From: Escherichia phage Eeyore
DNA length: 45,057 bases
Sequence record: PP925821.1
Strand: one strand, 5' to 3'
Made by a program: the position numbers and the translations under genes. The notes under the pieces were generated by a model. It ran no database searches. It was not told the DNA's origin and saw nothing but the letters and a program-made list of their open reading frames with translations. Of the stretch, positions 38,045 to 38,670 are shown one piece after another. How positions within the stretch are numbered: the stretch's first letter is position 1; every line of letters begins with the position of its first letter.

Positions 38045-38123
38045 TGAAATGCAACCGAATAAGATGAACGTTACATTGCAATCTCCCTTGGTTATCATGT
38101 CCAAAACGATGTCGATCAAGGAG

Positions 38124-38606
38124 ATGAAAGTGAAAAAATACGGTTTGGTCTTATTTGGTGTGCTCTTTATTTCAGGTTGTGCCCCACAAAATCAGAATAA
38201 CAATTTACAAAAGCAATACGCTGATTTAGCAAATTGTGAAGATAACATTACGATGCCAAAACAAATGCCGCATAGTAAAAAGGAGTTTGCGGACTTTTTA
38301 TCTAAGGCTGCGCTTAATGCCTCGGCAGATCAGTTTGTTATTCAGAAGCGTATAGAGATTCTTCAATTAGTTGGATGGGATAATTCGGTAGCTGATGCAA
38401 TAACAACATGTAGCGCCACCAGAAAGAGCAAGCTTAAAGAAATTGGGGCGAATGTGTTTGAAACCATGAAAGCCAATACTAAAGACACAGAGGAACGTCG
38501 TGCTCTTGTTGAGGCTTATAGTTCGTGGGAAGCTTATGTAACCAGTCAAACGCCACTCGCAAAACAGGACTTTGACTCAAAAGTTAGTTATTACAAAAAC
38601 ATGTAA
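38124..38606 (+). CDS. Lipoprotein moron between tail genes I and J
   Basis: 160 aa from ATG 38124 (SD AAGGAG); signal peptide MKVKKYGLVLFGVLFISGC with lipobox ISGC; visibly AT-rich; own candidate promoter (TTACAT-16-TATCAT) and terminator. Confidence 0.7.
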   Translation: MKVKKYGLVLFGVLFISGCAPQNQNNNLQKQYADLANCEDNITMPKQMPHSKKEFADFLSKAALNASADQFVIQKRIEILQLVGWDNSVADAITTCSATRKSKLKEIGANVFETMKANTKDTEERRALVEAYSSWEAYVTSQTPLAKQDFDSKVSYYKNM

Positions 38607-38634
38607 TAAGACGCCATCATTAATACTAACAAAT

Positions 38635-38658
38635 AACCCAGCTCAGGCTGGGTTTTTT
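38635..38658 (+). terminator. Intrinsic terminator after the lipoprotein moron
   Basis: CCCAGC-TCAG-GCTGGG followed by T6. Confidence 0.6.
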
Positions 38659-38670
38659 AATGGGGTAAAA

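Follow-up and report, generated by a model that had tools for sequence, protein, structure and literature searches.

Escherichia phage Eeyore (PP925821.1) carries, between its tail genes I and J, an inserted cassette (38045–38658, + strand) that is, by identity and architecture, almost certainly the morF moron known from phage phi80. All positions refer to the 45,057-nucleotide stretch of DNA that was analysed, which we call the window. Our analysis points strongly to morF being an independently transcribable gene for a helical, disulfide-bonded domain that is anchored in the outer membrane and faces the periplasm. No sequence feature of the cassette is new, its moron and lipoprotein nature having been annotated in phi80 more than a decade ago. 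What this analysis adds is the size and range of the family, the predicted fold, the mobility between genomic slots, the purifying selection, the comparison of MorF with the tip of J, and the tracking of that tip by a second lipoprotein gene, termed LP2 here.

The morF cassette between genes I and J

A 2-kb segment around the cassette shares 99.0% DNA identity with phage Flotzy and 96.7% with phi80, and the cassette itself is 94–99% identical to morF of these two phages. In the phi80 record FN582354.1 the product is called "MorF lipoprotein precursor; moron gene product" (CBH95072.1), and a −35 and a −10 element, a transcription start site (an annotation with no stated experimental basis), a signal peptidase II signal peptide, a lipidated Cys and a rho-independent terminator are all marked; JX871397.1 names the gene morF (PHI80_20) and its product hypothetical. 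The window protein matches PHROG 8179, a family of unknown function, over its full length (E = 3.6e-73). A search of the open-access literature for MorF and phi80 returned no paper giving MorF a function. The preliminary description of this DNA had proposed a lipoprotein moron at this site, and that proposal is fully supported, as the phi80 records carry the same annotation.

In the definition of Juhala and Hendrix, as summarised in PMC3594210, a moron is extra DNA that close relatives lack, that differs from its flanks in base composition and that has its own promoter and terminator. At the same junction in phage mEp043, the stop codon of I is followed by approximately 40 nt with a small hairpin and then by J, and the cassette stands in place of this spacer; mEp213 and LLS match the window in the same two-piece way, with the cassette absent. 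The GC trough and an alignment that included phi80, Flotzy and the insert-free junction of mEp043 place the bounds of the insertion at the I stop codon (38042–38044) on the left and at the T-run of the terminator on the right, with J starting at 38671. The low GC content reported for the cassette was reproduced, at 0.36–0.42 over 38000–38700 compared with 0.55–0.63 in I and 0.53–0.58 in J, and a promoter and a terminator are recognisable at the sequence level. By these features the cassette is a true moron. The mEp043 spacer (locus L003, ~2246–2286; L numbers denote the compared loci) holds its own small hairpin and T-run, GGTGCTTCGGCAC TTTTTTT, directly before J. Since the morF insertion ends on its right side within the T-run, a terminator-like element would be present between I and J with or without the moron.

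A sigma-70-like promoter was located by consensus scan at 38070–38098 (+), with a −35 hexamer GTTACA (38070–38075), a 17-nt spacer and a −10 hexamer TATCAT (38093–38098); the TTACAT-16-TATCAT promoter reported previously is the same site shifted by one base. Taken alone, a site of this quality is at chance level, with 3 found against 3.1 expected in a 3-kb scan. Comparison rescues the match because both its position and its hexamers are conserved: of 48 distinct upstream sequences, which come from two clades in different genomic slots, 42 have GTTACA-N17-TAT[C/T]AT equally far from the start codon, and alignment of cassettes from the two slots shows no change in either hexamer and a spacer of variable sequence but fixed length. 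The predicted transcription start of the cassette lies near 38105. A Shine-Dalgarno sequence, AAGGAG (38118–38123, +), is found 6 nt 5' of GTG 38130, and in the second clade (clade B) the equivalent AGGGGA precedes an ATG.

The morF coding sequence (38130–38606, +; TAA stop at 38604–38606) specifies a 158-residue prolipoprotein and was delimited with the list of open reading frames (ORFs), PHROG 8179 and the ratio of nonsynonymous to synonymous substitutions (dN/dS). Its likely start is GTG 38130, a position occupied by ATG in clade B and in L026. An in-frame ATG at 38124, 5' of this GTG, was taken as the start by the annotators of FN582354.1. The ATG at 38049 was rejected as the morF start; it only opens the longest ORF and is placed 5' of the promoter. 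Downstream of the gene, a hairpin scan and the FN582354.1 annotation agree on an intrinsic terminator (38635–38658, +) made of an 8-bp stem with 5 G-C pairs and a 4-nt loop (38635–38654), followed by a T-run; its folding energy is −15.8 kcal/mol (z = −3.2 versus shuffled sequences). Every feature listed in the preliminary description, including the Shine-Dalgarno sequence, the lipobox and the terminator, was confirmed in the sequence, and its interpretation was partly supported.

The phi80 and window copies are one gene in one location, between I and J, and share their promoter, Shine-Dalgarno sequence, lipobox and terminator; they are 96.7% identical in DNA and 91–94% in protein. The phi80 allele differs in having a nonsense codon and one extra codon, whereas the window has a full-length allele, as do the other family members. 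At 8283–8309 of phi80 (L001, FN582354.1), which corresponds to 38580–38606 of the window, phi80 reads GAC TAA where the window reads GAC TCA; the nonsense codon deletes the family-conserved C-terminal SKVSYYKNM, and the extra codon, CAA, sits after Cys36. The classical phi80 copy of morF may be impaired, which would be relevant to any phi80 experiment. The only clearly inactivated copy seen is that of L021 (IMGVR_UViG_3300048921_000161, 3362–3835), where tblastn gives 99% identity over 158 residues and the frame stops after 67 codons.

The MorF protein and its family

MorF begins with a lipoprotein signal peptide of 16 residues (38130–38180, +, including the Cys17 codon at 38178–38180), which reads MKKYGLVLFGVLFISG before the lipobox Cys. 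It consists of a basic n-region (MKK), a hydrophobic h-region (YGLVLFGVLF) and ISG followed by C, in agreement with the lipobox pattern [LVI][ASTVI][GAS]C. Cys17 is present without exception in 24 diverse family members, LPAM_1 matches 25 of 30 members, and a sig_peptide is annotated here in phi80. The residue at +2 is Ala in the window and A, S, T or V in all relatives, and is Asp in none. In E. coli, lipoproteins without Asp at +2 are sorted to the outer membrane, so that MorF is predicted to be localised there. The mature protein has approximately 140–141 residues. Its predicted structure is all-alpha with five helices and a pLDDT of 81 overall and above 90 for residues 50–158. Within it, C36 and C94 are invariant or nearly so across the family, and the C-terminal motifs AYSxWExY and YYKNM are kept down to 21–25% identity. 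The window protein combines all the marks of the MorF family (PHROG 8179), namely the full-length profile match, the lipobox, the two internal Cys and AYSxWExY followed by YYKNM.

The mature domain matched nothing in Pfam, NCBIfam, PADLOC or a profile search of PDB sequences, and a Foldseek search against viral structures gave no hits at E ≤ 0.001. Matches to LprI/DUF1311 (E = 0.22) and to phasin were far below the cut-off and confined to 1–2 of 30 members, and were set aside as noise from helical composition.

The family is also small. A word-indexed search returned 43 MorF clusters, all from Enterobacteriaceae and none with a functional name, and when 1.84 billion representatives were searched exhaustively with a profile, no more than 24 clusters reached E ≤ 0.001; named members come from Kluyvera, Enterobacter, E. 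coli, Proteus and Providencia. The gene is present in 3 of 5,426 complete E. coli genomes, of which two belong to laboratory strains, and in 4 of 50,697 phage records (three for phi80 and one for Flotzy), and a search among plasmids found none. Judged from these searches, MorF is a tiny family confined to prophages of Enterobacterales. The dN/dS ratio is 0.07 in the phi80-like clade (165 pairs) and 0.09 in the Citrobacter/Enterobacter clade (363 pairs), which indicates that morF is a working gene under strong purifying selection.

We classified the tail-gene neighbours of morF in approximately 80 loci from genomes, metagenomes and IMG/VR, using for the locus scan a mid-range alignment subset, since the broad family alignment was too divergent. 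The I–J slot accounts for 22 loci, all of them phi80-like and with MorF 89–100% identical. The H–M slot accounts for 43, including a large Citrobacter/Enterobacter clade at 53–64% MorF identity, in which the gene starts approximately 100 nt past the tape-measure gene and is followed by 0.1–4.8 kb of variable cargo. Further members lie in the K–I slot (L065, L075–L077 and probably L079), in the M–L slot (L073 and L074) and in the T–H slot, the last in Proteus prophages (L068–L070) and in an HK97-like phage (L080/L081). In every tail locus MorF is on the strand of the tail genes. With at least five tail slots and one site outside the tail genes, the family as a whole is not tied to J, and only one clade adjoins it; what is constant, as far as these loci indicate, is a location within the tail-tip portion of a lambda-like tail operon. 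The sole non-tail context is a short E. coli contig (L071, 5429–5911 and 6991–7466), on which a member with 32% identity is found in an early region, next to genes for antirepressor, Kil and Gam; the next ORF there has a hydrophobic stretch and is possibly a membrane protein. In L080/L081 (7001–7483), which have an HK97-type capsid and a TLTM-type tape measure, the MorF homologue lies between the T chaperone and tape measure genes, where HK97 has its exclusion moron, gene 15.

Comparison of the two large clades suggests what has moved. The I–J and H–M cassettes are homologous only from the −35 hexamer to the stop codon, indicating that the mobile unit consists of promoter, leader and coding sequence; the terminators of the I–J and clade B cassettes are unrelated, each clade having its own. 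Between the same two clades MorF is 53–64% identical compared with 27–44% for the surrounding tail proteins, and because MorF is the better conserved it has moved between modules. Co-divergence of MorF with the tail module was ruled out by this higher conservation and by promoter DNA that can still be aligned.

In Citrobacter/Enterobacter-type prophages, the interval from the tape measure gene to M is a hotspot for cargo, with MorF invariably in first place. A full-length PD-lambda-1/SNIPE defence gene (~8544–10157, − strand; E = 7e-201) comes next in 11 H–M loci (L005–L010, L034, L036–L038 and L053); other H–M loci have antirepressor-like genes (Bro-N/P22_AR_C, ORF6N), a SocA_Panacea pair, small membrane proteins or nothing. 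In L011–L014 and L062, a 195-residue ORF (8496–9083, +) begins 13 nt past the stop codon of the MorF homologue with no terminator between them, and may be its operon partner; it had no match in Pfam (precomputed), PADLOC or NCBIfam.

The J tip and the lipoprotein genes downstream of J

The cassette is flanked by the tail assembly gene I (37427–38044, +), which is 99% identical to phi80 gp20, and by the host-specificity gene J (38671–42231, +; 1186 aa). We compared MorF with J in the 19 phi80-like loci that have a complete J. Residues 1–800 of J are 90–100% identical to the window in all 19, and MorF is 89–100% identical, except for the truncated allele of phi80 and one copy with a nonsense codon. 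Over the final 300 residues of J, in contrast, identity is anywhere between 27 and 100%, and at least four unrelated types of tip can be told apart. These percentages are to be read with the linkage in mind, as MorF is physically linked to the conserved block of I and the N-terminal part of J, and recombination in J would uncouple it from the tip regardless of function. MorF is under purifying selection in all J-tip backgrounds.

The window J is itself a mosaic relative to phi80 gp21, to which its N-terminal ~860 residues are near-identical and its last 300 are 62% identical. Divergence is concentrated in residues ~860–1050 and the last ~30: a diverged coiled-coil-like segment with a 31-residue indel follows residue ~860, then ~100 conserved residues, then the diverged extreme tip. 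This pattern fits recombination within J that exchanges the receptor-binding end.

The genes downstream of J behave differently from MorF. All four loci with a phi80-type tip (ending in GxLTGV) have Cor downstream of J, and all four with the window-type tip (ending in NNVLRVRMGLW) have LP2 there; in the other 11 of the 19 loci, a search of the 3.5 kb past J found no lipoprotein. LP2 (43130–43492, − strand) occupies the phi80 cor slot outside the cassette and was characterised from the ORF list and by profile, locus and structure comparison; its region also matches phage LLS, which does not carry morF. Because Cor and LP2 track the J tip while MorF does not, the candidate for receptor-matched exclusion is the gene in the cor slot, and LP2 appears to be a better candidate than MorF for a receptor-matched exclusion lipoprotein. 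The predicted fold of LP2 resembles the C-terminal domain of TonB. As a lipid-anchored domain of this kind, LP2 could act as a decoy for the TonB box of a TonB-dependent receptor; a limited search of the open literature found no precedent for a lipid-anchored TonB decoy.

Beyond the tail region, positions 1–24000 of the window match the early and lysogeny region of Flotzy at 96.9% identity over only 57% of their length. The Flotzy-matching left part includes genes for an integrase, a DNA methyltransferase, a PAPS reductase and a primosomal protein, and other parts match LLS and other lambdoid phages. By these alignments the window is a mosaic phi80/Flotzy-like temperate phage and a copy of neither.

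Candidate roles of MorF

Given these features, a course of events can be outlined for MorF. The prolipoprotein would be processed by Lgt and LspA at Cys17, and a tether of approximately 10–20 residues would hold a disulfide-bonded, all-helical domain of approximately 120 residues in the periplasm. The promoter of the cassette would transcribe morF in lysogens, and the constant co-orientation with the tail genes means that read-through from the late operon can also transcribe it in lytic growth. We tentatively favour a role in which MorF interferes with entry by lambda-like siphophages at the level of the envelope and independently of the receptor. In this role, the domain would act irrespective of the outer-membrane receptor bound by J, and the step blocked would be transit through the periplasm or engagement of the tail-tip/tape-measure complex.

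This role is favoured because the family is limited to tail-tip modules, in any free slot; because one member holds the slot of HK97 gene 15; because PD-lambda-1/SNIPE neighbours MorF in 11 loci; and because a tethered periplasmic domain would sit where tail tip and tape measure must pass. Receptor independence is suggested because MorF remains 89–100% identical over at least four J-tip types. The PD-lambda-1/SNIPE protein, which associates with the tape measure protein and acts through it, cleaves siphophage DNA as it is being injected (PMC13190303). The nearest model by analogy would be the HK97 gp15 moron and not the receptor plugs Cor and Llp: gp15 blocks entry without blocking the receptor, and does so in dependence on the incoming tail (PMC3594210). 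Both MorF and gp15 are encoded by morons in siphophage tail operons with their own expression signals, and a MorF member occupies the same slot between T and the tape measure gene. HK97 gp15 is a small inner-membrane protein, however, and MorF is a lipoprotein. We know of no homology between the two, for which no direct sequence comparison was made. A further and doubtful step would be that MorF founds a new class of prophage entry-exclusion proteins, in which a helical periplasmic lipoprotein tethered to the outer membrane recognises a conserved part of the lambda-like tail-tip/tape-measure complex instead of the receptor. If that were true, MorF would travel with tail-tip modules in any free slot and protect lysogens against many siphophages regardless of receptor.

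Lambda Bor lies near the lysis genes, outside the tail-tip module. MorF could resemble Bor in being a lysogenic-conversion factor for host fitness that alters an envelope property, for instance resistance to serum or antimicrobials, tolerance of stress or adhesion, with no link to phage entry, which we consider unlikely. Its hosts are gut Enterobacterales, and a promoter for expression in lysogens together with strong purifying selection would suit such a trait. Yet MorF has no match to Bor/Iss or any host envelope family, and great rarity would be odd for a generally useful trait. In the loci seen, moreover, the family is exclusive to phage tail modules (the early-region contig L071 aside) and absent from plasmids and from chromosomal sites outside prophages. 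Many morons are of the host-fitness kind, and Bor/Iss, like MorF, is a small lipoprotein expressed from the prophage and encoded as a moron (PMC3594210); unlike Bor/Iss, MorF gives no match to the Pfam Bor family.

It is more doubtful still that MorF inactivates some other outer-membrane protein, so that lysogens would be protected from unrelated phages or colicins. The same evidence for envelope localisation would apply, the indifference of MorF to the J tip is what such a model predicts, and the conserved surface motifs in the C-terminal half, AYSxWExY and YYKNM, suggest a fixed binding partner. But heterotypic exclusion of this kind leaves the confinement to tail-tip modules and the constant co-orientation with tail genes unexplained, and MorF bears no likeness to any known receptor-binding lipoprotein.

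The preliminary description had argued from the adjacency to J that MorF is a candidate superinfection-exclusion factor of the Cor/Llp type that blocks the receptor of its own phage. In such a model MorF would be a plug on the periplasmic face of that receptor and would block adsorption of the same or related phages. Cor and Llp are lipoproteins of approximately 60 residues with a shared small fold and an essential disulfide, whose genes adjoin the receptor-binding gene and which jam the FhuA plug from the periplasm (PMC9586334; preprint 10.64898/2026.03.26.714494). The likeness to MorF is real in several respects: Cor (of phi80, N15, HK022 and T1) and Llp (of T5) are phage outer-membrane lipoproteins of the tail or receptor-binding region that are expressed independently of the structural genes (PMC9586334; preprint 10.64898/2026.03.26.714494). 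MorF likewise is an outer-membrane-type lipoprotein with its own promoter and adjoins J in the window, and an intramolecular disulfide, established for Cor and Llp, is probable for MorF. The comparative data weigh against this interpretation. The Cor profile PHROG 1119 matches only residues 1–29 of MorF (E = 0.0068) and BLASTP with phi80 Cor aligns only residues 1–18, so that just the signal peptide is common to both and the mature domains show no similarity. At approximately 141 residues and with an all-alpha fold, mature MorF is more than twice the size of mature Cor or Llp and does not share their small fold. The Cor and Llp genes typically lie downstream of the receptor-binding gene and are inherited with it, whereas morF lies directly upstream of J in one clade only, changes slot and does not co-vary with the J tip as Cor and LP2 do. 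Finally, phi80 already has Cor for FhuA, and the window has LP2, with its TonB-like fold, in the cor slot. MorF should not be filed as a member of the Cor/Llp family, from which it departs in sequence, size, fold, position and co-inheritance, and we regard a plug of this type as improbable. The lipoprotein-moron part of the earlier claim stands, the block of the phage's own receptor is weakened by the comparative evidence, and MorF may have a functionally analogous role or act in superinfection exclusion of another kind.

T5 Llp also protects progeny, and MorF might likewise serve the lytic cycle by shielding new virions from abortive ejection on debris or by modulating tail-tip maturation or lysis. 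This role is improbable as well: in its favour, MorF shares the orientation of the late tail genes in all of its tail slots, of which there are at least five, and the neighbouring morons LP2 and PD-lambda-1 lie on the opposite strand, but the conserved promoter and the terminators of the cassettes point to expression in the prophage state, and three close relatives, mEp043, mEp213 and LLS, lack morF and are viable (PMC12315714).

Whichever of these roles applies, morF is one of the few phi80 genes that can be expressed from the prophage and still has no assigned function, and its value lies in that question. Phi80 ("Lula") is both a classical model phage and a notorious laboratory contaminant. 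The comparative result moves the receptor-blocking hypothesis from MorF to LP2, the lipoprotein encoded downstream of J, and LP2, in its resemblance to a tethered TonB C-terminal domain, may be a more interesting object than MorF itself.
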